From: Bacilli bacterium
Lineage (GTDB): Bacteria; Bacillota_I; Bacilli_A; RFN20; CAG-288
Direction of reading: 5' to 3'
DNA length: 55,062 nt
Assembly (NCBI GenBank): GCA_017470005.1
Contig: JAFUFH010000090.1
Coordinates: 1 to 55,062, forward strand
Shown: positions 4,979-21,762 of the stretch, one piece after another
How positions within the stretch are numbered: position 1 is the stretch's first letter
Layout: each line of letters opens with the position of its first letter
Position numbers and translations under genes: made by a program
Notes under the pieces: model-generated
Database searches by the model: none
The model's input: the letters and a program-made list of their open reading frames with translations, nothing else
What the model was told of the DNA's origin: nothing

Positions 4979-5422
4979 TTAAGCTTTTTGTTCTTGTTTT
5001 TTATCTAAGAAGCAAACAACGATAGATAAAACCATCAAGAGAGCAAAGATGACAAGGAAGGTAGTGAAGATATTAGAGACAGTCAAAGCGAATTCACCAC
5101 TATCGACGAAGAAAGCAACACCAGTGGCAAGGTCTGCGTAAGGATAGCAAGACATGAAGAGGTGTTGACCAACTCCACATCCATAAAGGATAGTGGAGAT
5201 GATAGCAAGGAATTCGATTTGAGTGAAGCAACATGCTAGAGAGAGAAGTCCACCCACCAAGACGAATAAGAAGGTGAAGAGTGTATTGTCAGGGAAGGAG
5301 ATGTGTCCTCTTACGACGGTGATTTCAATGATCAAGAAGAGGATAGAAGAGATTAAGGCGATGACACCTGTAACGAGTTGAATATAGAACGCTTTGCTAC
5401 GATTCTTGAGAGACAAATTCAT
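4979..5422 (-). CDS. Hypothetical 4-TM membrane protein
   Basis: Four hydrophobic segments; starts 1 nt after the GH3 stop, with SD AGGAGG. Confidence 0.8.
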   Translation of the reverse strand: MNLSLKNRSKAFYIQLVTGVIALISSILFLIIEITVVRGHISFPDNTLFTFLFVLVGGLLSLACCFTQIEFLAIISTILYGCGVGQHLFMSCYPYADLATGVAFFVDSGEFALTVSNIFTTFLVIFALLMVLSIVVCFLDKKQEQKA

Positions 5423-8305: not shown

Positions 8306-9586
8306 TTATTTGGATAAGGCTAAGTATTCTAAGGCGTTAGTGGAAGTGGCGGTGGTGAATTTCTTGGATCCACTAAATTTCTTGGCTTCAAGATATTCGG
8401 CACCAGTTTCATAATATTTGGTTCCAACGACTTCTTGAGAACCGGTTTCAGGATCATATTTGATATCTTTATCGGCGCTCTTTTCTTTCATTTCAGGAGT
8501 CCAGTTGGCGGTATCCACATAGTAAGAAGAGTCATAGGCCATAACAATTCTTGTAGGTTCAGATAAAGTGTAATAAACCGTATCTTCATCTAAATCGTCT
8601 ACTTCAGAAGTGAAAGTTCCGTAATACTTGGTCAAATAGTTATCTCTTTCATTGGCGGTAGCATCATTTCCTTCATCAGGAAGGATGACGGCAGAGAAGC
8701 AAGAAGAGGAGATGGTTAAACAATAAGTGTTATCGTTGAAAACCTTTAAATCTTGATAGGCGAAAGTGGTGAGATAGTAGTTATAAGTAGGTCTCATGTT
8801 GGAATAAGACATCTTGGCGGGAGAGAGGAATTCATTGGAGAGATTCTTGTCGATATCGGTCTTCTTGGTGGCGGGAGCATTGGCGACAGGTTTGTTATCT
8901 TTGGAGAAGACATCTAAGAATTCTAAGGCAGAGTTCTTCTTCGCGGTGGTCAAAGTGACAGGAGCAAACTTCTTAGCTTCAAGATATTCGGCACCAGTTT
9001 CATAATATTTGGTTCCAACAACTTCTTGAGAACCAGTTTCAGGATCATATTTGATATCTTTATCGGCGCTCTTTTCTCTCATAGCGGGAGTCCAGTTGTC
9101 GGTATCGACCGCATAAGCGGAATCATAAGCCATGACGATACGAGAAGGTTCAGATAAAGTGAAATAGACCGTATCCTCGTCTAATTCGTCGACTTCAGAG
9201 ACAAAGGCACCATAATATCTAGTGATATAATTATCTCTTTCATTAGCGGTAGCATCGTTTCCTTCAGCAGGAAGGATGACAGCAGAGAAACAAGTGGAAG
9301 AGATGGTTAAACAATAGGTGTTGTCAGAATAAGTTTCTAAGGTTTCGAAAGTGAAAGTGGTGAGATAGTAGTTATAAGTAGGTCTCATATTGGAATAAGA
9401 CATCTTAGCGGGGGAAATGTAGTTTCCAGTTAACGTGGCTTCTTTTCCTTCCCCGGAAGTAGTATCTTCCTGAGTCGTGGTATTAGGAAGAGTGGTTTCT
9501 CCAGCGGTAGTAGGATTAGAGGTTCCACAGCCAACTAAAGCGATGGAGGCTAGTGCTAAAACGGAAGTAACAAATAGCTTTTTCAT
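8306..9586 (-). CDS. Lipoprotein with two tandem ~170-aa repeated domains of unknown function
   Basis: Lipobox LVGC; Thr-rich linker; SPAKMSYSNMRPTYNYYLTTF...KYYETGAEYLEAKKF occurs twice, with a 591-nt period. Confidence 0.9.
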   Translation of the reverse strand: MKKLFVTSVLALASIALVGCGTSNPTTAGETTLPNTTTQEDTTSGEGKEATLTGNYISPAKMSYSNMRPTYNYYLTTFTFETLETYSDNTYCLTISSTCFSAVILPAEGNDATANERDNYITRYYGAFVSEVDELDEDTVYFTLSEPSRIVMAYDSAYAVDTDNWTPAMREKSADKDIKYDPETGSQEVVGTKYYETGAEYLEAKKFAPVTLTTAKKNSALEFLDVFSKDNKPVANAPATKKTDIDKNLSNEFLSPAKMSYSNMRPTYNYYLTTFAYQDLKVFNDNTYCLTISSSCFSAVILPDEGNDATANERDNYLTKYYGTFTSEVDDLDEDTVYYTLSEPTRIVMAYDSSYYVDTANWTPEMKEKSADKDIKYDPETGSQEVVGTKYYETGAEYLEAKKFSGSKKFTTATSTNALEYLALSK

Positions 9587-9644
9587 GATATAAATCTCCT
9601 TTTATTTGCTTATTAGAGCCCCTACGGCTTCTAATCTAGTTAAG

Positions 9645-9712
9645 AGTTTATAAGACATAGGGGCTAGAATTTCTTCAACGGCGAAAATTGACGTTTTGAA
9701 GTCAAAAATTGT
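9645..9712 (-). promoter_or_regulatory. LytTR-type direct-repeat pair plus -10 box (site A)
   Basis: Plus-strand CGAAAATTGA 9682-9691 and CAAAAATTGT 9703-9712; minus-strand -10 TAAACT at 9645-9650, 31 nt away. Confidence 0.8.
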
Positions 9713-9719
9713 TAAAAAG

Positions 9720-12206
9720 TTACTGAACGGTGATGGTGTGAGTACCGTTACTGAGGTGTAACGCTCTCTCTTCTAAGGCGACAGATTCTCCATCGAGAGT
9801 GACTTGATTTCCAAAGGAAGGATCAAGGAGGAGTCTTCCTCCATCGTTAGGACAAGTGACTTGGATGGTGGTCTTTTCTTCTTTTGTTTCTAAAGTAAAG
9901 GAGAGAAGACCATCGGGAGTGGTTGCAGAAGCTTGATAGGAAGAGGAGACTCCGTAAGCGGGTTTGATCTGATAACTTTGGTATCCTGCACTCAAAGGTT
10001 GAATGCCAGCAAAGTATTTGCTCATGACCACTAATGGACCACCCGCCCATCCGTGATTGATGGTTCCAGAATCCGGAGCGGGATCCCACTCTTCCCAGAG
10101 AGTAGAAGCTTCGTATTCAATCATTCCTTTATAACGGGTGAGCATTCTCTGTTTTGCTTCAGTGAAACGATTCATCTTGGCTAAGGCTTCATCCACAAAT
10201 CTTTCCATATAAGGGGATGCGTAAGCCGTATTGACCAAAAGGGAAGTGACTAAGTCATAATCCTTTTCCTTCACAAGACCAGAGAGAACAGCAAGGGCGT
10301 TTCCTCTATCATCATAGGGACGTCTTATTCCATCACTAGTCACAGATGCAAAACCATTTTCGGTTCTATAGATGCTATCAAAGACAGATTGGATGGAGTT
10401 TCTTCTCTGTTCAAAGAGGGTTTTATCTTCGTCTTTCAATTCTCCAACTTCTTTTCCAAGAAGCAGGACTCTCTCTAATGCCCAGTAATACCAGCACTGT
10501 TCCATCAAATCCGAATCGGTATTGTTTCCCCAGTCGACCCAGGGGAATGTACCATTTCGATATTGAACAGTTCCATTTTTATTCATATTCCATAATTTGA
10601 GATAGTTTACATAAATGGGAAGAATGAGCTTCATGGTCTCTTTATCCCCGGTGTGGAGGTAGTAATCATAAGTGGTGATGATACAAGCTAAGTTTTGCAT
10701 CGGGATCTCGTTGGTAGTCTTACTTGGCCAACGGGAAGGAATGACATCCTTCATATCCCCTTCATCTGTGACCCAACCAAGAAGAGAAGTGTAAGTCTTT
10801 TTGGCTAAGGCCCAACCATCGCTATCTAAGGCATAAAGAGTTTCTGCAATTTGGTTAGCGGCATCTCCGGTGTAGGGAGAACGTTCTCTTTCTGGGCAAT
10901 CCATGTAGTTATCTCTCATGCAGATGCGAAGAGTATTGGATGCTTTTTTCCAAAGAGTATCTAAATCTTTGTTATCGGATTGATACTGTCCGGTTTGAAG
11001 AGCGTTGTATCTTGTTTTTCTATAGCCAACTTTGGTGATAGTGATACCCGCAGGGACTTCCATGATGAATTGATAACCGGTTCTATAATAGAGTTGTTGA
11101 TATTCTTGTTTTCCTTCTATGGTGACATAATCGTCCATGAAGGAAGTGGTTCCTTGTGTGGTTTTGGTGTTGGTGTAGAAGGTGATCACTTTTCCTTTTT
11201 CATCTGCTTCTAATTCGAAGTAAGGAAGGAATTGTTGATTCTCATCTAAGGCAAAGGTAAGAATGCTATCGCTGGTGGTTTTCTTTCCTAAGACCGAGTG
11301 TATATCTTCCATGTCTGTCACTTCTTCATCAAAAGCAAAGGGAGGAATTTCACAATAATAAGTGTCACCGAAAGGAAGATTTCCAGGAAGGCAAAGTAAG
11401 CTAGCATCATCCCAGGTGGAATCATCTAAGCTTTCATCGGTGAAATCTTCTTTGAAGGAAGCGTCAAAATAGATATCTCTTTCGGCTAAGAAAGAAGAGG
11501 TGGGGTGATTGGGATATTTCTCCTTGAGGTTAGATTTGTTTCGATAGGCAGCGATTCTTTTGACTTTGGTTTTGGAATCGGAGACGATATGTTCCTCTCC
11601 TAAAGATAAGTCATAAAGAAGACCACCTTGGAAATTCTCTTCATCTTTTTTTGCAGCGATAGAAGAGTTTCCACTTTGTCCCCAGAAGACGACTTCAAAG
11701 ACAATCAGGTTTTCGCCTTGCTTCAAATGAGACGTGACATCAAAATTGGAATAATAAGAGTCATGTTCACTCATACCTCTTTTGATGTTTCCATCTACGA
11801 CAACTAATTTACCGTTGATCCAAACGGTGACTTTATCTGCCGCAGATAAAGAAAGAATCGCTTTAGAAGGAATTTGATTGACCTGGAATTTTCTGCGGAA
11901 AGCAAAATAGGAATCGGCGGGAGTTTTGCTATACCAAATCCATTTAGCTCCATTCCAAGCAGGAGCTTCTTTCTTTAATGAGGATAATTTGGATAGGTAA
12001 GGCAAATGAGAAGTGTCTTCTTTTCCTTCTGGATAAAGATATTCTTCGACTTCTTCCTCGGGGGTAGTAATGCTTTCTTGACTTTCTTCTGTTGAGGTAG
12101 TCGTGGTGGTAGCAGGAGTAGTTTGGCTAGGAGAAGTGATGGCACTTTCCCCACAAGAAGTAAGGAAGGTTAAACTGATCAAGGATAACAAGATTTTCTT
12201 TTTCAT
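9720..12206 (-). CDS. GH78 alpha-L-rhamnosidase lipoprotein
   Basis: Lipobox LTSC; YMDCPERERSPYTGD, TLWEEW and NHGWAGGP motifs. Confidence 0.9.
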   Translation of the reverse strand: MKKKILLSLISLTFLTSCGESAITSPSQTTPATTTTTSTEESQESITTPEEEVEEYLYPEGKEDTSHLPYLSKLSSLKKEAPAWNGAKWIWYSKTPADSYFAFRRKFQVNQIPSKAILSLSAADKVTVWINGKLVVVDGNIKRGMSEHDSYYSNFDVTSHLKQGENLIVFEVVFWGQSGNSSIAAKKDEENFQGGLLYDLSLGEEHIVSDSKTKVKRIAAYRNKSNLKEKYPNHPTSSFLAERDIYFDASFKEDFTDESLDDSTWDDASLLCLPGNLPFGDTYYCEIPPFAFDEEVTDMEDIHSVLGKKTTSDSILTFALDENQQFLPYFELEADEKGKVITFYTNTKTTQGTTSFMDDYVTIEGKQEYQQLYYRTGYQFIMEVPAGITITKVGYRKTRYNALQTGQYQSDNKDLDTLWKKASNTLRICMRDNYMDCPERERSPYTGDAANQIAETLYALDSDGWALAKKTYTSLLGWVTDEGDMKDVIPSRWPSKTTNEIPMQNLACIITTYDYYLHTGDKETMKLILPIYVNYLKLWNMNKNGTVQYRNGTFPWVDWGNNTDSDLMEQCWYYWALERVLLLGKEVGELKDEDKTLFEQRRNSIQSVFDSIYRTENGFASVTSDGIRRPYDDRGNALAVLSGLVKEKDYDLVTSLLVNTAYASPYMERFVDEALAKMNRFTEAKQRMLTRYKGMIEYEASTLWEEWDPAPDSGTINHGWAGGPLVVMSKYFAGIQPLSAGYQSYQIKPAYGVSSSYQASATTPDGLLSFTLETKEEKTTIQVTCPNDGGRLLLDPSFGNQVTLDGESVALEERALHLSNGTHTITVQ

Positions 12207-12232
12207 ATTAAAAGTTCCTTTTTTGTGATAAT

Positions 12233-12300
12233 ATTTTATTTAGGGAAAACACAAACATTTGTTTAAGAACAAAAATTGTATTTATAAAAGCAAAAATTGA
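12233..12300 (-). promoter_or_regulatory. LytTR-type direct-repeat pair plus -10 box (site B)
   Basis: CAAAAATTGT 12270-12279 and CAAAAATTGA 12291-12300; minus-strand -10 TAAAAT at 12233-12238, 31 nt away. Confidence 0.85.
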
Positions 12301-12320
12301 TATATAAAGATTGAAAAAGC

Positions 12321-13034
12321 ATGGAATTGGTTAAAATTGTCATCCTGGAAGATGAAAAAGAACACTCGGACAAGTTGATTTCTTTCCTGAATCAGTATTC
12401 TCAAGAGACAGGAAAGGTTTCTTTTGATATCCGTCTTTATGAAGCTCCATTGGAATTCATGGAGACCTTCCGTTATGATGCCGATATCATCTTTTTAGAT
12501 ATTCAAATGCCAGGAATGACCGGAATGGATGTCGCCCATGAAATTCGTAAGCAAGACCAGGATGTTACACTCATCTTCATCACGGCTTTAACCCAATATG
12601 CTGTGGAAGGATATTCCGTGCAAGCTGAAGACTATATCTTAAAACCAATTTCTTACCCTGAATTCAAAATGAAAATGGTAAGATCCCTTTCTAGAATCGT
12701 CTTGAAAGGTGGCAAATATCTCACCTTTATCAACAATGAGACCATTCAAAAGGTGTCTTTAGATAGCATCACTTATATCGAGACAGATATGCATCGTCTT
12801 CTTTTCCATGACAACGAAGGCTTTTGCTTTGTCAAACATCAATCCATGAAAGAATGTGAAGAAGAATTAAAAGGAACCGATTTCCTTAGAATCAATTCTT
12901 CCTATTTAGTGAATTTAAGATATGCTGTCAATATCAGCAACGGGGACATGCTTCTCAACGATGGTACCAGACTCAAGATTTCTCGACCGAGAATGTCTGA
13001 AGTTTGCTCTGAATTTGCTCAATTTAAGAAATAG
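12321..13034 (+). CDS. LytTR-family response regulator
   Basis: REC domain (LEDE, FLDIQMP, ILKP) plus LytTR domain (ITYIET, FLRINSSYLVNL). Confidence 0.95.
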   Translation: MELVKIVILEDEKEHSDKLISFLNQYSQETGKVSFDIRLYEAPLEFMETFRYDADIIFLDIQMPGMTGMDVAHEIRKQDQDVTLIFITALTQYAVEGYSVQAEDYILKPISYPEFKMKMVRSLSRIVLKGGKYLTFINNETIQKVSLDSITYIETDMHRLLFHDNEGFCFVKHQSMKECEEELKGTDFLRINSSYLVNLRYAVNISNGDMLLNDGTRLKISRPRMSEVCSEFAQFKK

Positions 13035-13037
13035 TAT

Positions 13038-14393
13038 ATGACAATCATTTATTTTTTGCGTACATGGGGTGCAATCACTAGCTTTTATACCATGCTCTAT
13101 GAATGGGAAATCATTCAGCATTTGGTATGTATTTTCCTTTTTAATTGGCATCTTCCAAAACGCAAATATACATGGCTTTATTGTACCATCGGAACTGTTT
13201 TGATGCTCGGGTGGGGCTTTTTGCTTGGATTTTTAAGAGATTTGTGGCCCGATTCCAATCTTTTTAAAATCTTCGCTACTCTTTCTTTATATAGTTTCTC
13301 GTTATTTATCACCTTCTTCTGCTATAACGAAAAACATTGGTCCCACGTATTCTTAAGCTGGATTACCGCATTGTGTGTAAGGGAAGTGATTGATGCAGGT
13401 TATGCTCTAATTTGTATGTCTACAGGACAAAACCCACGTCTTGGTATCATTCAGTTTATCGATAATGATATCTTCAATCTAGTGATGTATGATCTCATGC
13501 ATATCGTCTTTGCTATCGCTTTGTATTTCTTGTTGAGAAAACGTATTCATTTGGTGGAAGATCGCTCCATTTCTTTGCGTATCATCATCATTTCATTAAC
13601 GATGTTATTTGCGCTGGTTTTAATCAAAACATTTGTTGTGATCAATTCGGAATCGGCAATACCTTTGTACGGGTGTTGTGAAGCATTAATCTTACTTGTT
13701 TCTGCCCTTCTTTTATTTGTAAGAGCGGACATTTTAAGAGAATCTTCCTTCAAAGTGGAACAAAGAATCATGGATCAAGTTTTAGCCGAAAACAAAAAAC
13801 AATATCAGTCTTTGAAGACCAATATTGATATTGTGAATATGAAAGCTCACGACTTAAAACATCAGTTAGAAAAATACCAAGATAAACTGACCCAAGAAGA
13901 AGTGGAATCCTTAAGAAATGCGGTAGATGTTTATGACAAAGATATCCGTACTGGATCTCCTGTCTTAGATACCGTTCTATATGTCGAGCACCTTGTTTGT
14001 GACAAACATCAGATTCAATTCACCTATCTATGTGATGGGCATCAGTTAGAGAACTTCTCCTCTAGTCAGCTCTATTATCTCTTCTCGAATATCATTGATA
14101 ATGCTATCGATGCTTGCAAGGATGTGCCTGTGGAAAATAGAATCATTTCTTTCAATATTCGACAAAAAGATAATCAAATTGTCATTGATTCTTGTAATTA
14201 TTTTGAGGGATCTAGAAATATTCAAGATGGTGTGATGGAGACGACAAAGAAGAATAAAGCCCATCATGGATATGGATTAAAATCTATCAAGATGATTGTG
14301 GAACAAAACAAAGGTAGTATGAATATTCATACCGAAAATAATATGTTCTTTATGGTAATCAACCTACCGATACCCGAAAAGAAAACGATTTAA
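13038..14393 (+). CDS. Multi-TM GHKL histidine kinase (AgrC/HATPase_c_5-like)
   Basis: About 7 TM segments; H-box AHDLKH, N-box NIIDNAIDA, G-box HGYGLKSI. Confidence 0.92.
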   Translation: MTIIYFLRTWGAITSFYTMLYEWEIIQHLVCIFLFNWHLPKRKYTWLYCTIGTVLMLGWGFLLGFLRDLWPDSNLFKIFATLSLYSFSLFITFFCYNEKHWSHVFLSWITALCVREVIDAGYALICMSTGQNPRLGIIQFIDNDIFNLVMYDLMHIVFAIALYFLLRKRIHLVEDRSISLRIIIISLTMLFALVLIKTFVVINSESAIPLYGCCEALILLVSALLLFVRADILRESSFKVEQRIMDQVLAENKKQYQSLKTNIDIVNMKAHDLKHQLEKYQDKLTQEEVESLRNAVDVYDKDIRTGSPVLDTVLYVEHLVCDKHQIQFTYLCDGHQLENFSSSQLYYLFSNIIDNAIDACKDVPVENRIISFNIRQKDNQIVIDSCNYFEGSRNIQDGVMETTKKNKAHHGYGLKSIKMIVEQNKGSMNIHTENNMFFMVINLPIPEKKTI

Positions 14394-15274
14394 TGATTGT
14401 TTTGATGAGAGTGGAATAGTTTCTGCTCTCTTTTATATTGGCTGATGAAATCAAAGCTTACACAAAGAGATTCGATGGGGTTTTTATGTAAGTAATGTTT
14501 GTGTTGTTCTAAAATGACCGCCTCGACTTCATTCTCTTGATCTTGCTTTAAGAAGGCGAGGAGGTTTAAATTTCCTGTTCCTAGTTCCACCGCTTCATTG
14601 GAAATGATGGGTGTCATGAATTTTTTGTGACTTAAATTTCCGTGATCACAGATGTGATGAAGTTTTTGTCTTTTTCCTAATTTCTTCATGTAGAAAAGAG
14701 CATCCACCCCAGAGATAGAGGGCCAATAGCTATCAAATTCAAAAGAAACATAGTCGGGATCGGTGTTTTCGATGATGAAGTCATAGGCTAATCTATCGGG
14801 AGTAACATGAACAAATTCTACATTATGATTGTGATATAAGAACGTAAGGCCGTGCTCAGATAAGTTCTTTCCTATCTTGTTGAGACGTTCCGCAAGAGCG
14901 AGCACTTCTTTCTTAGAACTATACTCAAATTGATATAAGCCAGTTAAAACAATGTTGTGTGTTTGAAATAAGGTTGCTTCTTTCACCACATCGTCAAGTC
15001 TTTTTTCTAAGGTGTCGATATCTTCGTGAATCGAAAAGACTTTCAAGGAGACTTGATCTAATAACTCTTTCCAATTCATCTTGCCAGAATTCTTGATGGG
15101 CATCCCACTCATGGAAGTTAAAAATTTGACAATCCAGGGGCTTTTTCGAATCATGAAACCATTCAATTCGATGCCATCATATCCAGAAGCTTGGATGATT
15201 TTTAACGCATTGAGTGCATTCTTTTTATTGCTAAGGACTTTCCCTAATTGTAATTGTTGAACACCAAATTCCAT
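14390..15274 (-). CDS. Sugar phosphate isomerase/epimerase-like TIM barrel (AP_endonuc_2)
   Basis: GYDGIEL, YHNHNVEF, FEFDSYW, HICD and ILEQ metal-binding motifs. Confidence 0.88.
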   Translation of the reverse strand: MEFGVQQLQLGKVLSNKKNALNALKIIQASGYDGIELNGFMIRKSPWIVKFLTSMSGMPIKNSGKMNWKELLDQVSLKVFSIHEDIDTLEKRLDDVVKEATLFQTHNIVLTGLYQFEYSSKKEVLALAERLNKIGKNLSEHGLTFLYHNHNVEFVHVTPDRLAYDFIIENTDPDYVSFEFDSYWPSISGVDALFYMKKLGKRQKLHHICDHGNLSHKKFMTPIISNEAVELGTGNLNLLAFLKQDQENEVEAVILEQHKHYLHKNPIESLCVSFDFISQYKREQKLFHSHQNNH

Positions 15275-15307
15275 AAGCTGCCTCCCTCTAAGTCTTTATT
15301 TGACAAC

Positions 15308-15375
15308 ATTATAAAAGGAAAAAAGGAATGTTTTTTTCTTTCGTCAATTTCTGTCTTTTTACAATCAAAAATTGA
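15308..15375 (-). promoter_or_regulatory. LytTR-type direct-repeat pair plus -10 box (site C)
   Basis: CAATTTCTGT 15345-15354 and CAAAAATTGA 15366-15375; minus-strand -10 TATAAT at 15308-15313, 31 nt away. Confidence 0.75.
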
Positions 15376-15434
15376 TGAAGAAAACCCGTCTGCTTTTGCA
15401 AACGGGTTTAGAAAAGGTTTATGAATGAAGCTTA

Positions 15435-16766
15435 TTATCTAGCCATGGTAGCAGTGTGTTCAACACTGTTGGCATCAACATATTTGAAGGAGTAGTTGTT
15501 GAAGGACCAAGTTCCGGTTTCAGTTAATTTATAGGAAGTGAAGTAGAATTTATAAGTACCATCCTTTAAGCAATCAAAGGTGCAAGAGGCATTTTCACCT
15601 TCTTTCACTTCTTGAGCAAAGCTGAATAGGACGTCAGTATCGCCTTCAACAGGTTGATAATTTAAGGCACTAGCGGTGCTCCAAACAGCAGCGGAGCAAA
15701 CAAATCTAGCCTTCAATTGAGCAGAGGCGACAGCAACATAATCGAAGTAAAGAGTGCCTTGAGAGTAGGAAGGGCCTTCTTGTTCACCACCAGATTCTTT
15801 GCCGATCAAGTTAGAGACATCTTCGCAGTAGAAGTTGTATCTAGCAACATAATCACCATAGACAGCTTCTTCCCAAGCGATGGTAGCGGATTTGTTTTCG
15901 GCGATAACAGCTTCACGAGGAGTTCCACCGATGACAACAGTCAACTTTTCCTCTTTGTAAGACCAAGAGATTTCACCCTTAGGATAGTAACCAATCAAAG
16001 CGCCATTTTTATCTAATCTTGCACCATAATCGGAACCAGTGTTATCGGCGAAGAGATAGAGCTTTTCTTTGGTTTCAGTATCTTCAAAGATAGCAGCGTA
16101 TTCTTCAGGTTCAACGAATTTATAGCTGGTTTCTTGGATGAATTCATCTAAAGTTTCATAAGGATCAGCATTGTATTCTAATTTGACAGAACGGCCAGAG
16201 ATACCGATCGGAATGGTGAAATTAGAGATATTTAAGGGAGTTTCATCATCAGAAGCAAAGTTGATGAGGTAAGTGTTCTTACCAGTGATGGGTTGACCAG
16301 TTTGTCCCTTGACACCATCAACGATGTTGACAACGGCTTTGATGCATTCATTATCGTCATCATCAGTAGCGAGGCCCCAGACACCATCAAACCATTTGGT
16401 AAGGTTTTTGTTTTCTTCCGCAGCGGAAGTATCTAAGGAATATATAGAATATCCGTATCCGTCTAACTTACCATCGGCATAAAGATTCAAGATATAAGAG
16501 TAGGCGAAACCGAAGTTGGCCATTTCGGTGTTGACACCAGTCCACTGATATTGAAGAGTGTGTTCTTTTTGTTCTTCTTCAGAATTGGTGGTGTTTTCTC
16601 CCGCAGTAGTGTTAGGGGTGTTTTCTCCCGAAGTAGTGTTAGGGGTGGTCTGTTGAGCAGTAGTTTCTGTGGGATTGGTGTTGCTAGCGGGAGTTTCACC
16701 GCAGGAAGCCATACCGAAAACGGAGATAGTAGAGAGTGCCAATAAGGCTAATCTTTTTAATTTCAT
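15435..16766 (-). CDS. Uncharacterised lipoprotein
   Basis: Signal peptide ending MASC; Thr/Asn-rich linker; acidic, aromatic-rich body; SD AGGAGG. Confidence 0.88.
   Translation of the reverse strand: MKLKRLALLALSTISVFGMASCGETPASNTNPTETTAQQTTPNTTSGENTPNTTAGENTTNSEEEQKEHTLQYQWTGVNTEMANFGFAYSYILNLYADGKLDGYGYSIYSLDTSAAEENKNLTKWFDGVWGLATDDDDNECIKAVVNIVDGVKGQTGQPITGKNTYLINFASDDETPLNISNFTIPIGISGRSVKLEYNADPYETLDEFIQETSYKFVEPEEYAAIFEDTETKEKLYLFADNTGSDYGARLDKNGALIGYYPKGEISWSYKEEKLTVVIGGTPREAVIAENKSATIAWEEAVYGDYVARYNFYCEDVSNLIGKESGGEQEGPSYSQGTLYFDYVAVASAQLKARFVCSAAVWSTASALNYQPVEGDTDVLFSFAQEVKEGENASCTFDCLKDGTYKFYFTSYKLTETGTWSFNNYSFKYVDANSVEHTATMAR
16591..16647. repeat. 27-bp tandem duplication in the lipoprotein linker
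   Basis: GTGTTTTCTCCCG(C/A)AGTAGTGTTAGGG twice, encoding PNTT(S/A)GENT twice. Confidence 0.85.
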
Positions 16767-16851
16767 CTTTTTATCCTCCTTTAAAATTTGATGTAAGATG
16801 ATCGCTCTCTTTTTTGAAAGGAGAGAGCGAGAACCTTAGGAAAAAACAGAA

Positions 16852-19800
16852 TTAATTACCAGCGACTTGAGTTTCTTTGACTAAGAAGCGTTCTAAGATG
16901 ATCATGGCAATACTAGCCGCAGCGATACCAAAGCCAGCAAAGGTGATGACCTTAAGAACCACGATCCACCAGGATTCAATCGGGATGATGGTGGCAGAGG
17001 AAGTGAGGCCGTTCATAGCGATAGAGTGAGCGATGGATTGGACGATACGTTTGGCGGCAACATGCATACAATGCACGATGGCTTTATCGTTCTCATATCC
17101 ATTGAGAGTACCAGCGGTACCGGAACCATCCCACAAATCTTGACCAGCTAAGACACCCATAGCGATGTCCATATAATCGGCGAAGACAGAACAGTCAGTG
17201 ATGGCAGCACCCTTCATACCCCATTCGTTACGTAAGACATTGGTCATGAGGTTGTAATCAGAACCTGCCCAAACAACACCTAAACGGTTGAAGGAGGTCA
17301 TGACACCTGCACCACCACCTAAGACAGAACCTTCAAAGGCTCTGAGATAGATTTCACGGATACTTTGTTCATTTGCCCAAGTGGAGAGACCGTAACGACC
17401 AGATTCTTGATCGTTGAGAGCGAAGTGCTTTGTGAAGACATAGATACCTCTTTCTTGGATGGCTCTAACTTCGTGTTCTAATGCTTTAGAAGTGAGGAGA
17501 GAGTCTTCAGAGAAGTATTCGAAGTTGCGACCGCAATAAGGAGTTCTGTGAATATTTCCACCAGGACCATATAAACCAGAGGTTCTTATATCCGCTTTAT
17601 TGTCGGCTTTTCCGCAGTCTTCTCCGATGAAGGAGCCCATCTTAGAAATCATGTCGATATTTCTAGTTGCTGCCATGATGTCTTCAGAGGTGTAACCCAT
17701 ACCGGAAGCACCAAATTGTAAGGATTTGGTATAACCTTGAGGACCATTTTCATCATAAGTTCCAGGTAAACCTAAGGAACCGATAGGTTGTGTGGCGTGG
17801 AAGCCATTACCGATGAGCTTATGGAGGTCTTCGAAAGAAGCTTGCTCGACAAGGTCTTGCCATAATTTGGCGCCTTCTTCTGTCTTATGATCTTCAGTGA
17901 TATCTCTCTTTTGGAACATGATAGCGGTTAAACCATTCTGTTGATTGAACTTTTCTAATTCGGTGATGTCAGAATAGTGAGCGGCTTTCATCTTTTCGAC
18001 GATAGCTTTTCTTCCTTCGGGAGTAGCAATCAAACCATCTTCCCACATCTTAGGAGAAATCTTAAGAGTTGGTCTTGTTGAAGCAGTGGGCATTGTTCCG
18101 ACCCAATCTTTACGAGTTAAGTATTTGATAGATTGGTCATCTTTGGTTCCTTCGTACTTGTTTAAGTCGGCGTGATCGAATTGGTTGGTGACTTTATAAC
18201 CTGTCTCTTCAGAAGTGGAACAAGTTGTGCTATCTAATTCATTTAAGGTCCATTTGGCGGTGTTGGCTGCTTTACCTTCCGCATCCATTTTGCCGGTGGT
18301 AGAAGAAGGAGTGTAACCTTTGGCGGCTAAGATATTGTTCAAAGCTTCGTGAGCACCGTTACCAATAGAGAAGTAGTAATCGCCTTTATCTAAGATATAG
18401 GTCTTAGCGAGGTTAGCATCATAAGAGGCGATATCTCTCTTCTTGATGGTGATGTTCACTGTTTCGCTTTCACCCGCTTTGACGATACCCGTTTTGGCAA
18501 AGCCAGCTAATTGAACTGCGGCTTTTTCGACACCATTTTCTCTGTCATAGTCGGTGTAGGGAGTTTGAACATAGATTTCCGCGGAGTTTTTACCATCGAC
18601 GGAACCCTTGTTTTCTACTTTGACAGAAACATCGAAATGGTCACCGTTTTCTTTCACATTGAGATTGGAATATTCCCAAGTGGTATAAGATTCACCAAAA
18701 CCGAAGGGGTAAGCAACATCATCATGATATCTGTATTCACCAGCATTTCCGTTACCTGTGACAAAGTCTTCATAACGGGTTTCATAATACTTGTATCCGA
18801 TGTAGATACCTTCTTGATAAACCATGTAATTCTCATTACATTCACCAGATTTACCCGGTTGATTGTATTGAACCCAAGAAGTCTTGTATTCACCCGTCAT
18901 ACCAGAGGCAGAAGAGTTAGTGAAGGCGTGTAAGCCGAAGTTGATGGCGGCAGGAGAGGTTCTATTGTTATTTAAGAAAGTCTCCGCCAAACGTCCGGAA
19001 GGATTGGTGTCTCCCGCTAAGATAGAAGCGACACCTTCCATACCATGAGTACCAGGGTCACCGATCCATAAGGCGGCATCGATGCCATAGGTGTCGGAAG
19101 TGAGGAAGTCGAGTTTGACTAAGTTAGAACCGTTGAGCAAGACAACAATCTTTTTGAAGACACCGTTGTCTTTGTATTGCTTCAATCCGGTTAACATATC
19201 GATTTCATTCTGATTGAGTCTTAAGTAATCGCCATCGATACCATCGGCGCATTCACTCATCGGTAAGTCGTTACCTTCACCACCAGAACGGGCGATGAAG
19301 ACAAGGGCGACATCTCCGTAATCGGCAAAGGAATCTTCCACTTCTGGAGTGATGACTTCCGCCCAAGGGGCTTCGTTGATACGATATTGATCAATGGTTC
19401 CACCAGAGGTGGCAGCATTGACTCTACGGTATTGAGTCAGATCATTGAAATAGTGGTTGTAGAGAACGTTGTTGGTACACTTTTTCGCAAAGTGTGCATT
19501 TAAACCAGCACGGATGGTGGTAGCTTGAGAGATGTTGACTTGACCAGAACCAGTACCGCCATAGACAGGGTCGACAGAAGAGGTAGAGAACATAGAGAAT
19601 TTGGTTGTCTTAGCTAAAGGAAGGGTATTGTTTTCGTTCTTGAGAAGAACAGCACCTTCGGCTTCTAAGTTTGTGCATAGTTCTTTTTCATCCTCTGCTA
19701 ACTTTTTACTTCCTTCTTCTGTGTTAGGATAGTTGGTTTTGTAGTATTCTGTGTCTTCTTCATTACCACCGGTGTCTTTGATCTCGAATGTTTTAACATT

Positions 19801-19923
19801 CCAAGTACCATCTAATTGGGTTTTGAAGAGGGGGGATACTCCCCAGGCAACAGCACCTACGACACCAAGGAATCCGAAAACAGAGGAGAGGGAGATCCAT
19901 AATGGTGTGTGTTTTTTCTTCAT
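16852..19923 (-). CDS. GH3 beta-glycosidase, permuted domain order, N- and C-terminal membrane segments
   Basis: Start moved to MKKKH (SD AAGGAG); EGAVLLKN, YQEGIYIGYKYYE, GRNFEYFSED, KHF and AITDC motifs. Confidence 0.95.
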   Translation of the reverse strand: MKKKHTPLWISLSSVFGFLGVVGAVAWGVSPLFKTQLDGTWNVKTFEIKDTGGNEEDTEYYKTNYPNTEEGSKKLAEDEKELCTNLEAEGAVLLKNENNTLPLAKTTKFSMFSTSSVDPVYGGTGSGQVNISQATTIRAGLNAHFAKKCTNNVLYNHYFNDLTQYRRVNAATSGGTIDQYRINEAPWAEVITPEVEDSFADYGDVALVFIARSGGEGNDLPMSECADGIDGDYLRLNQNEIDMLTGLKQYKDNGVFKKIVVLLNGSNLVKLDFLTSDTYGIDAALWIGDPGTHGMEGVASILAGDTNPSGRLAETFLNNNRTSPAAINFGLHAFTNSSASGMTGEYKTSWVQYNQPGKSGECNENYMVYQEGIYIGYKYYETRYEDFVTGNGNAGEYRYHDDVAYPFGFGESYTTWEYSNLNVKENGDHFDVSVKVENKGSVDGKNSAEIYVQTPYTDYDRENGVEKAAVQLAGFAKTGIVKAGESETVNITIKKRDIASYDANLAKTYILDKGDYYFSIGNGAHEALNNILAAKGYTPSSTTGKMDAEGKAANTAKWTLNELDSTTCSTSEETGYKVTNQFDHADLNKYEGTKDDQSIKYLTRKDWVGTMPTASTRPTLKISPKMWEDGLIATPEGRKAIVEKMKAAHYSDITELEKFNQQNGLTAIMFQKRDITEDHKTEEGAKLWQDLVEQASFEDLHKLIGNGFHATQPIGSLGLPGTYDENGPQGYTKSLQFGASGMGYTSEDIMAATRNIDMISKMGSFIGEDCGKADNKADIRTSGLYGPGGNIHRTPYCGRNFEYFSEDSLLTSKALEHEVRAIQERGIYVFTKHFALNDQESGRYGLSTWANEQSIREIYLRAFEGSVLGGGAGVMTSFNRLGVVWAGSDYNLMTNVLRNEWGMKGAAITDCSVFADYMDIAMGVLAGQDLWDGSGTAGTLNGYENDKAIVHCMHVAAKRIVQSIAHSIAMNGLTSSATIIPIESWWIVVLKVITFAGFGIAAASIAMIILERFLVKETQVAGN

Positions 19924-19972
19924 ATTTTGCTCCTTTTCATGAAGAAAGACTGGACGTCTTTTCTTGGCTAAT

Positions 19973-20040
19973 ACTTTAATCACTTTGCCAAAAAGAAAAC
20001 GCTCACATTCAAAAATTGTAGGTTCATGAGCAAAAACTGT
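19973..20040 (-). promoter_or_regulatory. LytTR-type direct-repeat pair plus -10 box (site D)
   Basis: CAAAAATTGT 20010-20019 and CAAAAACTGT 20031-20040; minus-strand -10 TAAAGT at 19973-19978, 31 nt away. Confidence 0.85.
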
Positions 20041-20143
20041 CGCTCAAAGGGAAAATATATAGTTGAATATATTTATTAATATAAAGATTTAAGTAGAAAA
20101 AAAGCTCGGCGTTTCCACCGAGCGAAAGGAAAGGATTAATTTA

Positions 20144-21619
20144 TTAGGAAGACTGTTTCTTCATGTTCTTCTTTTGAGAATACATGAGAATATCTGCTCT
20201 CTTGAAGACATCCTCTACACAAGTGTCCTGGCTAGGATTGAAGGTAGAGTAGCCTAGAGCGGCAGAGACGGTCTTTGTCAATTGAGATTCGTCATTATTG
20301 AGAGGAGAGGAAACTTCATCGTTGAAATTTTGGATGAGAGCTTCAGCATTCTCATAATCTTTTTCTTTTAAGATGACGACGAATTCATCTCCACCGATAC
20401 GATAAGCGGGAGAGTGAACGAATGTCTTTTGAATGAGTTTTCCTAAGCGGATGAGAGCTTGATCACCTTCGACGTGACCAAAGTCATCGTTGATCATCTT
20501 CAAATAGTTGAGGTCGATCATGGCGATGCCGAAGTGTTGCATCTTTCCTTCTTTGATTTGATCGTTGATTAAGTTTTCATCGCTGGTATAGGCGATCTTA
20601 TTATAGAGCCCTGTGAGAGCATCACTGTTAGCTAAAACGGTGATACGAACGTTTTCTTGCTGAGATTGGATGAGTTGTTCATTGGTTTTGGTAAGCTCAT
20701 CGATTTTGTTGCTGACATCTTCTTCCATTTTGACAAGAGATCTTCCTAAGTCACCGATCTCGTCGTTGACGGTGGTGTTAATCTTAGAGAACTCTTTTCT
20801 TGTCTTTTCTAAGTTGGAACTGTCGTAAGAGCTAGCAATTTTAGTTAAACCTTTTAAAGGCTTAATGATACCGAATTGAGAGATAATTAACGCAAACACG
20901 GACACAACAAGAGCGGTGGACATGGTGTAGATGAAGAGTTGGATGATATTTCCTGCTTGGTGAGCACGGATAACTTTTAAGCTGATATCGGTTGCCATGT
21001 AGCCGATGACTTCATCGTTGTGATAAATCGGTTTTCCTGCGGTGACCAATTGACCAAAGTCGGCATAATCGACAATACTGGCAGGGAAGCCGTTAGCGGG
21101 GTCTTTTCTGATAGCTGCTTTTGCGTCTTCGTTCATCTCATCGATAGATCCGATAGGGCAAGGATCGACTAAGTCTCCGTCGGCGACATAAATACAGTTT
21201 TCATTCTCGATATCGACGAAGGTGATATAGATACAATCAATTTCGTGGGAATTGGCTCTTTCTACTTTTTGTAAGAAGTTGATGAGATCTTTGTAGTTTT
21301 GACTTTCTTCTAGAGTGGTAAACTGTTCCACATAAGCGTTCCAGGCATCAGAACCCCACTCATCATTTCTCGGTTTGGTTTCCGAGTTTTCGTAAATCAG
21401 CTTTACTTCTTCAATCAAATCATGGGCTTTTTGCGTGTCCACTGTTGCCGCTACCGTTCCTGCAAGGGAAGAAGCGATATCTTTGTATTGCTGACGATTA
21501 GAAGAAGAAGAGACCAACGAGAAATAAGCCATTGCAACTTCAACAAGAAGAATGACTAAGACATAAATAAAGATGATGGACTTCGCTTGAATCGTGAAAC
21601 GTAACTTCTTTTTTTGCAT
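20144..21619 (-). CDS. Membrane sensor diguanylate cyclase (TM-sensor-TM-HAMP-GGDEF)
   Basis: DALTGLYN, IDLNYLKMINDDFGH and YRIGGDEF motifs; two TM segments. Confidence 0.93.
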   Translation of the reverse strand: MQKKKLRFTIQAKSIIFIYVLVILLVEVAMAYFSLVSSSSNRQQYKDIASSLAGTVAATVDTQKAHDLIEEVKLIYENSETKPRNDEWGSDAWNAYVEQFTTLEESQNYKDLINFLQKVERANSHEIDCIYITFVDIENENCIYVADGDLVDPCPIGSIDEMNEDAKAAIRKDPANGFPASIVDYADFGQLVTAGKPIYHNDEVIGYMATDISLKVIRAHQAGNIIQLFIYTMSTALVVSVFALIISQFGIIKPLKGLTKIASSYDSSNLEKTRKEFSKINTTVNDEIGDLGRSLVKMEEDVSNKIDELTKTNEQLIQSQQENVRITVLANSDALTGLYNKIAYTSDENLINDQIKEGKMQHFGIAMIDLNYLKMINDDFGHVEGDQALIRLGKLIQKTFVHSPAYRIGGDEFVVILKEKDYENAEALIQNFNDEVSSPLNNDESQLTKTVSAALGYSTFNPSQDTCVEDVFKRADILMYSQKKNMKKQSS

Positions 21620-21681
21620 AGTTTTGACCTAAAAAAACCAGGGTCACGCAAAGAGTGGCACTGGCTCATAAAAAGTCATAA

Positions 21682-21762
21682 ATGTGCAACTGGCTGCCTT
21701 AAAATTGAGGGCCCTCTAGCTTTGCGTCACCGGATTTCTCCGGGTTTGCCGATAAAAACATC
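21682..21762 (-). ncRNA. c-di-GMP-I (GEMM) riboswitch aptamer
   Basis: Minus strand GGCAAACCCGGA-GAAA-TCCGGTGACGCAAAGCTAGAGGG...CAGCCAGTTGC; P1 ATGT/ACAT. Confidence 0.92.

Follow-up and report, generated by a model that had tools for sequence, protein, structure and literature searches.

Four pairs of short direct repeats in the analysed stretch of DNA (the window, 55,062 nucleotides) are most probably the operators of the adjacent LytTR regulator (12321–13034), which, judging from the arrangement of the sequence, would activate four promoters that have no −35 element. The sites themselves, with their geometry, uniqueness, conservation and co-occurrence with the regulator, are observed; that the regulator binds them and activates instead of repressing, where transcription starts and what is sensed are what we infer. 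The assignment to the local regulator among the eight of the genome rests on adjacency, co-occurrence and locus-specific motifs.

In the proposed mechanism, a membrane-embedded kinase (13038–14393) would phosphorylate the regulator, probably at D60, and a regulator dimer would occupy two head-to-tail half-sites two helical turns apart, roughly at −74 to −65 and −53 to −44. The dimer would recruit or reposition RNA polymerase at four promoters with a −10 box and without a −35, thereby switching on four units: the rhamnosidase-like gene; lipoprotein–GH3a–orf147; the TIM-barrel gene; and GH3b–lipoprotein.

Geometry of the Repeat Pairs

All four pairs, read on the minus strand of the window, are direct repeats of the half-site consensus ACA[A/G][T/A]TTTTG with a period of 21 (4/4 sites), and the proximal half-site lies exactly 31 nt from a TAnnnT box in every case (4/4). 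The pairs, their period and this distance had been described in an earlier note on this DNA, and all were confirmed. The note had also seen no good −35, in agreement with our promoter scan, which listed no sigma-70-type hexamer pair (0) at the four −10 boxes.

Operator A (9682–9712, minus strand) has the form ACAATTTTTG-N11-TCAATTTTCG, with the distal half-site at 9703–9712 and the proximal one at 9682–9691; it is located directly 3' of the stop codon of the rhamnosidase-like gene and deviates from the pattern by one mismatch. Its predicted −10 is TAAACT (9645–9650, minus strand), with a presumed start near 9638. Operator B (12270–12300, minus strand; TCAATTTTTG-N11-ACAATTTTTG, half-sites 12291–12300 and 12270–12279, no mismatches) lies in a 114-bp divergent spacer, points to the rhamnosidase-like gene and ends 20 nt before the ATG of the regulator. 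The predicted −10 of promoter B is TAAAAT (12233–12238, minus strand; presumed start near 12226), and back to back with it there is a candidate extended −10 (TG-n-GATAAT, 12224–12232, plus strand) that, from its sequence, may serve the regulator/kinase operon.

Operator C (15345–15375, minus strand; TCAATTTTTG-N11-ACAGAAATTG) has three mismatches: its distal half-site (15366–15375) is perfect, and the proximal one (15345–15354), ACAGAAATTG, is A-rich. Its predicted −10 is TATAAT (15308–15313, minus strand; presumed start near 15301). Immediately upstream of this operator, after the gene of a 443-aa lipoprotein, is an intrinsic terminator (15382–15409, minus strand), whose 12-bp stem (−18.5 kcal/mol, z = −6.2) leads into a run of U. 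Operator D (20010–20040, minus strand; ACAGTTTTTG-N11-ACAATTTTTG, half-sites 20031–20040 and 20010–20019) has no mismatches, and the predicted −10 of its promoter is TAAAGT (19973–19978, minus strand; presumed start near 19966).

Rarity of the Pattern

With up to three mismatches allowed, the pattern has five matches in the window, namely the four sites and one shifted overlap of D, compared with 0.33 expected from dinucleotide shuffles of the window; 0/100 shuffles reach five. The genome (1.93 Mb) contains 10 period-21 matches at ≤3 mismatches, and those with zero (n = 2) or one mismatch (n = 1) are only B, D and A. Scanning periods 11–39 genome-wide added no further 0-mismatch match and a single 1-mismatch match, at period 15. 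Three-mismatch matches number 7 at period 21 against 3–13 at other periods, and since these counts are alike across periods, site C is inseparable from the background by the pattern alone.

At the five background matches elsewhere in the genome, TAnnnT is found at neither 31 nor 32 nt (0/5); this box occurs at 2.8% of intergenic positions, and its presence at one exact offset in 4/4 sites has a probability of ~6e-7, assuming independent sites. Genome-wide, the combination of repeat pair and TAnnnT 31 nt away is limited to the four sites of the glycosidase locus, and the outcome that the earlier note had named as refuting, a motif of this spacing being common in the genome, did not arise.

Regulator and Kinase

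The response regulator (237 aa, 12321–13034, plus strand) consists of a receiver domain (PF00072, 61.3 bits, cut-off 30.2) and a LytTR DNA-binding domain (PF04397, 49 bits, cut-off 22.6); the latter, at C33:12744–13004, is one of exactly eight in the genome. ComE (4cbv) is its only full-length match among solved structures (E = 1.5e-6), and D60 is the likely phospho-acceptor, judging from the receiver fold. We rejected its assignment as a BtsR, LytR or AgrA equivalog (NCBIfam 65.6/246, 58/375 and 34.4/400 bits); because all these scores are far below the cut-offs, the regulator represents an unnamed LytTR subfamily.

The sensor histidine kinase (451 aa, 13038–14393, plus strand; PF14501, HATPase_c_5, 75.1 bits) has, from its hydropathy, at least five membrane helices in residues 1–230 (47–228) with no large loop, followed by KAHDLKHQLE and a GHKL ATPase domain. 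H271/H275, presumably including the phosphorylated histidine, and the N and G boxes are invariant in five orthologues. With its polytopic sensor lacking any large extracytoplasmic domain, its H-box and its HATPase_c_5 domain, the protein belongs with AgrC/ComD-type GHKL kinases; a LytS-type 5TM sensor and His_kinase (PF06580) are absent from it, HATPase_c_5 and HATPase_c being the only matches. The central LytTR/GHKL pair proposed previously is thus indeed a REC+LytTR regulator with a polytopic GHKL (HATPase_c_5) kinase.

Genes Behind the Predicted Operators

All units lie on the minus strand. Operator B precedes the gene of a rhamnosidase-type six-hairpin lipoprotein (828 aa, 9720–12206; PF17389, E = 5.9e-29) with a lipobox in its translation. 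Operator A precedes three genes: a lipoprotein (426 aa, 8306–9586) with two ~190-aa repeats and no family, both halves of which match single-repeat orthologues; GH3a (5424–8270), a domain-permuted GH3 with the C-terminal domain first, a signal at its N-terminus and a membrane helix at its C-terminus; and orf147 (4979–5422), a small polytopic membrane protein of no family, which keeps its place behind GH3a in orthologous loci and behind the GH3 gene of three paralogous modules. Behind operator C is the gene of a cytoplasmic xylose-isomerase-like TIM-barrel protein (294 aa, 14390–15274; PF01261), and behind operator D are GH3b (16852–19923), the second domain-permuted, membrane-anchored GH3, which probably starts at the ATG at 19923 and not at the GTG at 19983, and a lipoprotein of no family (443 aa, 15435–16766).

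Of the seven genes previously taken as glycoside genes, three can be recognized as glycosidases, the two permuted GH3 and the rhamnosidase-like six-hairpin gene; the others are the two family-less lipoproteins, the TIM-barrel protein and the small membrane protein. Apart from the TIM-barrel protein, every product has an N-terminal signal or lipobox or membrane helices and is therefore expected at the cell surface or in the membrane. Such products suggest an apparatus that trims glycosides at the surface, possibly plant glycosides with rhamnosyl and glucosyl or xylosyl decorations. The ORFs between positions 1265 and 25237 contain no transporter family, and the locus does not count as a gpPUL (Sheridan 2016), though enzymes and a regulator are present.

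Conservation in the Genus

In five further species of the genus, and in metagenome contigs as well, the sites are kept before the corresponding units, with gene order and strand rearranged; G033 and G068 carry the right arm in inverted orientation, and the sites still precede the same units. Altogether we count 19 promoter sites from six lineages, with kinase identities of 42–62%, and because the orthologous genomes are kin, these sites are not independent. The period is 21 and the orientation to the target gene is conserved in 19/19, and TAnnnT is likewise present in 19/19, at 31 nt in 11 and at 32 nt in 8, without a −35 hexamer.

Orthologous sites of operator A precede the lipoprotein–GH3a–orf147 unit in L053, L055, L040 and L031, and those of operator D were found in G003 and G017. 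The A-rich proximal half-site of operator C also stands before the TIM-barrel orthologues in L040 and L031; the TIM-barrel gene is missing from L055/L032 and L053. Spacers and flanks diverge among orthologous promoters, and only the half-sites and the −10 box are invariant: in the alignment of promoter D (A2) the two half-sites and TAAAGTA form the invariant blocks, and a further alignment of orthologous promoters (A3) covers operator B. The gap between operator B and the start of the regulator is 8–19 nt in L031, L040 and L055, compared with 20 nt in the window.

At ≤2 mismatches, the motif is present in 5/5 genus genomes with the orthologous LytTR/kinase pair and in 0/5 genomes without it (92–93% complete). 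The pair-carrying genomes have 10 matches, nine of them before orthologous units, and the reversed-pattern control gave 0. A stray match with two mismatches (G016:C43:5401) lies outside any orthologous unit, and one L033 site has neither a gene nor a −10 box behind it. Overall, the computational checks suggested in the earlier note all went in its favor, the sites being conserved before the same units in orthologous loci and co-occurring with the regulator across the genus.

Metatranscriptome Contigs

It should be noted that RNA contigs show neither starts nor strand and that RNA libraries may contain DNA. Operator A is spanned by contigs 9245–9718 and 9421–9746 coming from the rhamnosidase-like gene, and since they bridge the site from the upstream gene, the unit behind it is read from upstream too, and promoter A could be no more than internal to a longer unit. 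Contig 12252–12739 starts at 12252, crosses operator B and enters the regulator gene, so that operator B seems to be part of the leader of this gene. Contigs from three studies have ends at 12205–12213, ~13–21 nt inside the predicted start of B, and in two studies contig ends fall at 19950 and 19949, ~16 nt inside that of D; both are weak hints.

Paralogous and Distant Modules

The genome contains eight LytTR two-component pairs, 7/8 of them within ~5 kb of a gene of a domain-permuted, membrane-anchored GH3, and several paralogous loci have private period-21 repeats. TTCACGMAA at period 21 has 3/3 genome matches in the C19 locus and AAGGTTATGCA has 2/2 in the C6 locus, each motif having been derived from the locus in which its matches were counted. 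In non-redundant sets, a GH3 gene lies within 5 kb of 22/23 distant kinase relatives, and a 9-mer repeat occurs at period 21 in 7/12 kinase-to-GH3 spacers versus 0–3 at any other period in the range 12–35. In the Clostridia MAG locus L047, TATCAGTTTTTG occurs twice at period 21, followed after 31 nt by TAGACT.

A tentative and rather doubtful reading is that of a widespread module in gut Bacillota and some Actinomycetota, in which a LytTR system is hard-wired to a permuted GH3, the kinase senses glycoside turnover in the membrane and not a peptide pheromone, and eight insulated copies discriminate plant glycosides. Such a module would comprise a kinase without an extracellular domain, a GH3 with a C-terminal membrane helix and often a small polytopic membrane protein. 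What the kinase detects might be a hydrophobic aglycone set free by the enzymes; alternatively, it might register their activity through the small partner protein or through the GH3 membrane segment.

Discussion

Several relatives have the core CA[AG]nTTTTG (it is common to L047, L051 and L079, with a near-match inside the C13 repeat), and recognition could therefore overlap among the eight LytTR regulators of the genome. The repeats might then be real operators of another factor, either one of the seven paralogues or an unrelated regulator encoded elsewhere. We consider this quite unlikely, because the motif is restricted to the glycosidase locus within the genome and travels with the orthologous pair (5/5 genomes with it, 0/5 without), and because the C19 and C6 loci have different repeats of their own and C13, C10 and C59 one repeat pair each. 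It is very improbable that there is no dedicated regulator and that the repeats are copied promoter modules or generic AT-rich elements, such as UP-like or −35/−10-like half-sites. The half-sites are indeed T-rich, and the promoter scan lists GCGACA-17-TACAAT at 20043–20015, inside operator D, but this hexamer pair is missing from A, B and C, and in two studies the RNA contig ends fall downstream of the start predicted from the D hexamers, which is a weak argument. Against such elements stand also the invariance of the half-sites and −10 alone amid diverged spacers and flanks, at 42–62% kinase identity, and the recurrence of the exact 21-nt period with unrelated half-sites in paralogues and distant relatives.

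The same regulator could also be mainly a repressor or act in a dual manner, for example by acting at site B as a roadblock to transcription of its own operon. Because operator B is close to the ATG, in the window as well as in L031, L040 and L055, and an RNA contig runs across it into the gene, a dimer bound at B would sit inside the regulator leader. The earlier note suggested that this site may autoregulate the regulator; any such effect would more likely be negative. As a description of the system as a whole, repression has little probability: at all four predicted promoters the sites would precede the −35 position, where a −35 hexamer is missing, and activator-dependent LytTR promoters are arranged in this way (PMC4227749). 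Orientation to the target gene, kept in 19/19 sites, likewise favors activation by the local regulator.

LytTR operators as such are textbook knowledge: AgrA sites have an ACAGTT core, and those of ComE, BlpR and PlnC are 9–10-bp repeats with a 21-bp period. In ComE the LytTR domains are placed in tandem, in keeping with a pair of direct repeats (PMC4005675). The agr system of Staphylococcus aureus (P2/P3), as presented in passages of PMC4227749, resembles ours in its REC+LytTR regulator and polytopic GHKL kinase, in a regulator dimer (AgrA there, predicted here) seated on a pair of imperfect direct repeats that precede promoters with a defective −35/−10 architecture, and in operators placed in a divergent spacer beside the regulator operon. 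There each promoter has its own repeat pair, whereas our divergent spacer contains one; the agr target is a virulence RNA and not glycosidases and lipoproteins; and no peptide gene was noticed in our locus. AgrB (PF04647) had no match in the genome (91% complete; the control set was without staphylococcus), and there is no AgrB-like ORF in the locus.

The ComE/BlpR/PlnC regulons of streptococci and lactobacilli also comprise several operons per locus, and because each operon carries a repeat pair, the regulon is readable from sequence both there and here. In contrast to them, a non-exhaustive search for small peptide genes found no pheromone gene in our locus, and the output is carbohydrate-active enzymes; the C39 exporter (PF03412) is missing from the locus, its two genome matches being on C65 and C34 and not on any of the eight LytTR contigs. 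BtsSR/YpdAB and LytSR likewise use LytTR regulators on carbon-source-related genes via direct repeats, and BtsR is the best NCBIfam match, but our kinase has no LytS-type domains and the regulator is far below the family cut-offs.

Bacteroides PUL hybrid two-component systems and Firmicutes gpPUL AraC-type regulators are also dedicated to one glycan locus and multiplied as paralogues (passages of PMC5320581); their DNA-binding domain and sensor architecture are unrelated, and our locus has no transporter. Further precedents are PUL7, 21 and 33 of Butyrivibrio proteoclasticus B316, where LytTR regulators beside secreted GH3 with a C-terminal membrane helix were remarked on in passages of a 2010 account, and the RR[LytTR]+HK pair listed for the Roseburia gpPUL Ros-7 in a part of PMC5320581. 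Main-text passages of the Butyrivibrio account give no operator, promoter geometry or regulon, whereas here all three are predicted, for a different, uncultured Bacillota lineage with eight copies of the module in 1.9 Mb.

Taken together, the design of this regulation is familiar and its job little studied; the locus is one more LytTR–GH3 system, well supported as such, and its new element is the readable operator code. For an uncultured rumen bacterium our results provide a testable regulon at sequence level, with four predicted promoters, one operator code and one regulator, and they turn the neighbourhood remark of 2010 into a checkable rule, according to which, within such systems, a 21-bp-spaced repeat pair ~31 nt before a −10 marks controlled glycosidase genes. 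If the signal is a plant glycoside or aglycone, the modules would be ready-made sensors and may help to predict the responses of gut bacteria to dietary glycosides; if the module reading is true, eight copies with private 21-bp-period operator codes would allow a 1.9-Mb genome to tell many plant glycosides apart. LytTR systems are known mostly from quorum sensing, competence, bacteriocins and virulence, and a large carbohydrate-dedicated branch would widen this picture.

Predicted Operators and Promoter Geometry

We read the minus strand before each of the four units and found a pair of direct repeats with a period of 21 nt, placed exactly 31 nt before a TAnnnT box, which confirms the arrangement described in the earlier note. 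Operator A (9712–9682) reads ACAATTTTTG-N11-TCAATTTTCG and is followed by TAAACT, operator B (12300–12270) reads TCAATTTTTG-N11-ACAATTTTTG and is followed by TAAAAT, operator C (15375–15345) reads TCAATTTTTG-N11-ACAGAAATTG and is followed by TATAAT, and operator D (20040–20010) reads ACAGTTTTTG-N11-ACAATTTTTG and is followed by TAAAGT. At up to three mismatches, the dimer of ACA[A/G][T/A]TTTTG has five matches in the window, namely the four operators and one shifted overlap of D, against 0.33 expected from the shuffled window (0 of 100 shuffles gave five).

Taking the −10 box as −12 to −7, the half-sites would lie at about −53 to −44 and −74 to −65, and minus-strand transcripts are predicted to begin near 9638 (A), 12226 (B), 15301 (C) and 19966 (D). 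The sigma-70 scan listed no hexamer pair at any of the four −10 boxes; with 24 sites against 24.7 in shuffles, it is uninformative in all other respects. A strong terminator (15382–15409, z = −6.2) separates the GH3b–lipoprotein unit from operator C, and a second one lies upstream of operator D (20104–20123). None of the four leaders matches an Rfam family, and the hairpins in those of units A and D are no better than in shuffled sequences (z = −1.5 and −1.0).

Genes of the Locus

The regulator (12321–13034) combines REC and LytTR domains according to Pfam, and the kinase (13038–14393) has at least five membrane helices, the motif KAHDLKHQLE and an HATPase_c_5 domain. The glycoside hydrolases GH3a (5424–8270) and GH3b (16852–19923), both on the minus strand, carry an N-terminal signal and a C-terminal membrane helix by translation and hydropathy, and their Pfam C-terminal and Fn3-like domains precede the N-terminal catalytic domain, that is, they are circularly permuted. 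GH3a-like matches occur on 13 further contigs of the genome. Translation and Pfam also show a lipoprotein with a rhamnosidase-type six-hairpin domain (9720–12206), and Pfam a xylose-isomerase-like TIM barrel (14390–15274).

Two lipoproteins (8306–9586 on the minus strand, and 15435–16766) and orf147, a small polytopic membrane protein by hydropathy (4979–5422, minus strand), have no family by Pfam at E ≤ 1 or by NCBIfam, and no NCBIfam equivalog cut-off was reached. For the lipoproteins, the protein atlas gave only sub-threshold lipocalin/NlpE-like leads (scores of 0.79–0.88), from which no function is claimed. The 426-aa lipoprotein (8306–9586) contains a unit of about 190 aa duplicated internally in tandem; single-unit orthologues in the related loci L031, L040 and L032 match both halves, and the duplicated form is found in L053. 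Proteins of the orf147 type, with the invariant motif GxGQ.L...CYP.AD, always stand 3′ of GH3a (4979–5422 here, 13599–14051 in L032, 275–715 in L053, 2740–3168 in L040).

Outside the four units, a c-di-GMP-I riboswitch-like element (RF03167, 21681–21759, minus strand; E = 7.5e-9, with 48.3 bits against a gathering score of 59) has a GGDEF diguanylate cyclase gene directly downstream (20144–21619); a c-di-GMP sensor before a c-di-GMP synthase gene would be a feedback loop. At 21919–23580 (minus strand), a glutaminyl-tRNA synthetase-type class I enzyme (PF00749 and both anticodon-binding domains) is encoded in this Bacillota-like metagenome-assembled genome. GlnRS is missing from many Bacillota.

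Specificity of the Operator Pattern within the Genome

The genome searched comprises 1.93 Mb in 92 contigs with 38.4% G+C, the window being the whole of one of them. At a period of 21 nt it contains 10 dimers with up to three mismatches, of which B, D and A are the only ones with 0 or 1 mismatch. Each other period within 11–39 nt gave 3–15 matches, none of them perfect and one overall with a single mismatch. Operator C has three mismatches, a level at which other periods are equally rich, so that for C the pattern alone is not significant.

TAnnnT occupies 2.8% of intergenic positions and is absent at 31 or 32 nt from all five background dimers outside the locus. The full architecture of dimer and TAnnnT box thus occurs four times in the genome, solely at this locus. 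The outcome that the earlier note named as refuting its reading, a motif common genome-wide, is therefore not observed.

Conservation at Orthologous Loci

Among the 44 other genomes in this genus, 5 contain an orthologue of the kinase (42–62% identity), and so do four metagenome contigs. The relatives among the genomes are labelled as uncultured Erysipelotrichaceae, Clostridia or Bacillales MAGs, and sequencing runs containing the stretch are labelled as sheep, goat, bovine or generic gut metagenomes. The gene set is kept across the loci while its order has changed: in G033 and G068 the TIM-barrel, GH3b and lipoprotein genes stand 3′ of the kinase gene on the opposite strand, G016 has its GH3a unit in another place, and the TIM-barrel gene is absent from G016 and L053.

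Every orthologous unit that could be examined is preceded by the period-21 ACA[A/G][T/A]TTTTG pair. All 19 promoter sites, from six lineages that are kin and therefore do not represent independent events, have a TAnnnT box, 31 nt away in 11 of them and 32 nt away in the other 8; the rhamnosidase-like promoter of L053, for example, reads GCAGAATTTG-N11-GCAAATTTTG, 31 nt, TAAAAT. In 40 half-sites, A at position 3 is invariant, C at position 2 is found in 36, T at position 7 in 39 and G at position 10 in 38. In the alignment of GH3b promoters, the only invariant parts are the half-sites and TAAAGTA. The A-rich deviant proximal half-site of operator C is itself kept before the TIM-barrel orthologues, and this conservation rescues site C despite its weak pattern score.

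The pattern also follows the regulator/kinase pair. At up to two mismatches it has 10 matches in the genomes with an orthologous pair, present in all five, against none for the reversed pattern in the same five, and none of five genus genomes without the pair (92–93% complete) contains a match. Seven of the 10 matches lie in known loci, two on small contigs of G003 and G017 carrying GH3b orthologues, and one is unexplained. The last (G016, contig C43, 5401–5431) has two mismatches and no orthologous gene near it, and could be a chance match or an extra target. In G003, a repeat pair GAAATTTTTG-N11-ATAGTTTTTG (L033, 1171–1201, plus strand) follows the lipoprotein gene, in the place taken by operator C in the window. 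Neither a TIM-barrel gene nor a TAnnnT box at 31–32 nt comes after this pair, which may be left over from a lost unit.

Paralogous Modules and the Wider Family

The genome encodes exactly eight LytTR domains, all in regulator–kinase pairs. Seven of these pairs have a permuted GH3 paralogue no more than about 5 kb away, and the eighth is at a contig edge; lipoprotein genes accompany six of the eight modules, and a 140–152-aa membrane protein follows GH3 in four.

Private period-21 repeats were found at paralogous modules on contigs C19 (20567, 25725, 35171), C6 (13447, 20582), C13 (47736), C10 (3251) and C59 (3896). On C19, TTCACGMAA stands before three units, which are all three of its period-21 matches in the genome, with a single further match at periods of 15–27 nt, at 19; on C6, AAGGTTATGCA stands before two units, its only two matches. 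These repeats are locus-specific, and the half-sites differ between the loci. Since both motifs were derived from their own loci, what counts as evidence is that each recurs at separate promoters and is absent elsewhere. For C13, C10 and C59, with one pair each, only the presence of a repeat is claimed; the C59 half-site pattern was rejected as a specific code (7 matches at period 21 versus 1–9 at other periods). Genome-wide, intergenic 9-mer repeats near LytTR pairs show a modest rise at period 21 (9 versus 0–6 elsewhere).

Four paralogous GH3 promoters (C13, about 47650; C10, about 3310; C59, about 3850; C29, about 62270) share a block between the repeats and the −10 box, consisting of TTGAAA or TTGTAA, then GGGC or GCCC, then TTT, which looks like a −35-like element with variable spacing.

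Outside the genus, a GH3 homologue lies no further than 5 kb from distant relatives of the kinase (24–38% identity) in 22 of 23 non-redundant loci (34 of 37 before removal of near-duplicates), orthologues and loci with less than 4 kb of flank being excluded; among the sources of these loci are a Bifidobacterium asteroides record and Clostridia MAGs. In 24 loci GH3 follows the kinase within 900 nt on the same strand, giving 12 non-redundant spacers. Seven of them contain a 9-mer repeat (at least 8 of 9 matching) at period 21, against 0–3 of 12 at all other periods of 12–35 nt, other multiples of three included. One distant locus, L047, has TATCAGTTTTTG twice at period 21, then 31 nt and TAGACT, and CA[AG]nTTTTG is common to several others.

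Metatranscriptome Contigs and the Regulator Leader

RNA contigs from four studies extend over the glycosidase and lipoprotein genes; start, strand and level cannot be read from such contigs, and DNA contamination is possible. Two of them (9245–9718 and 9421–9746) bridge operator A, so unit A is also read from the rhamnosidase-like gene. Contig ends from two studies (19950 and 19949) and from three studies (12205–12213) give a weak hint of the starts predicted for D near 19966 and for B near 12226. At none of these stops was a loose end reported. Bins at 20047–21700 are empty in all four runs, except for 1.4 in X19 at 20047–20607, and no piece among those listed falls in 15279–15416; contigs cannot show absence, and neither gap is evidence.

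The earlier note placed operator B about 20 nt before the regulator's own start and suggested that it may also autoregulate that gene. A candidate extended −10 element, TG-n-GATAAT, lies on the plus strand at 12224–12232, back to back with the −10 box of promoter B, and fits the start of an RNA contig (12252–12739) that takes in operator B and the first part of the regulator gene. The plus-strand start of the regulator operon is accordingly predicted near 12239–12252. In L031, L040 and L055 the distal half-site ends 8–19 nt before the ATG of the regulator. This geometry and the one contig suggest that transcription of the regulator operon passes through operator B, in which case an occupied B would be more likely to damp than to boost the expression of the regulator.

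Discussion

Overall, sequence comparison supports the interpretation proposed earlier to the extent that such evidence allows: the local LytTR regulator probably activates the four promoters. The operators are arranged as established for LytTR activators; in ComE, the tandem arrangement of LytTR domains is described as consistent with two direct repeats (PMC4005675). The system differs from the familiar LytTR systems themselves. It is not agr, as the genome has no AgrB match, nor com/blp, as its two C39 peptidase matches are on other contigs, nor is it of the LytS type. Inspection of the locus, as distinct from a dedicated small-gene search, brought no peptide gene to light. That the kinase, which lacks an extracellular domain, senses glycoside turnover or aglycones in the membrane rather than a peptide is the boldest possibility, and one judged less likely than not.

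The kind of system is already known. The link between LytTR and GH3 genes is in print (Kelly et al.), and the Roseburia gpPUL Ros-7 is described with RR[LytTR]+HK (Sheridan et al. 2016, PMC5320581). The published gpPUL definition does not apply here because neither the locus nor its flanks contain a transporter. In the full-text literature, supplements and most subscription journals being outside its scope, we found no operators or regulon for a LytTR–GH3 system.

Taken together, our results describe the operator code and geometry conserved in a widespread LytTR–GH3 module, of which one small genome has eight insulated copies, and they draw attention to the signal of a kinase without an extracellular domain.
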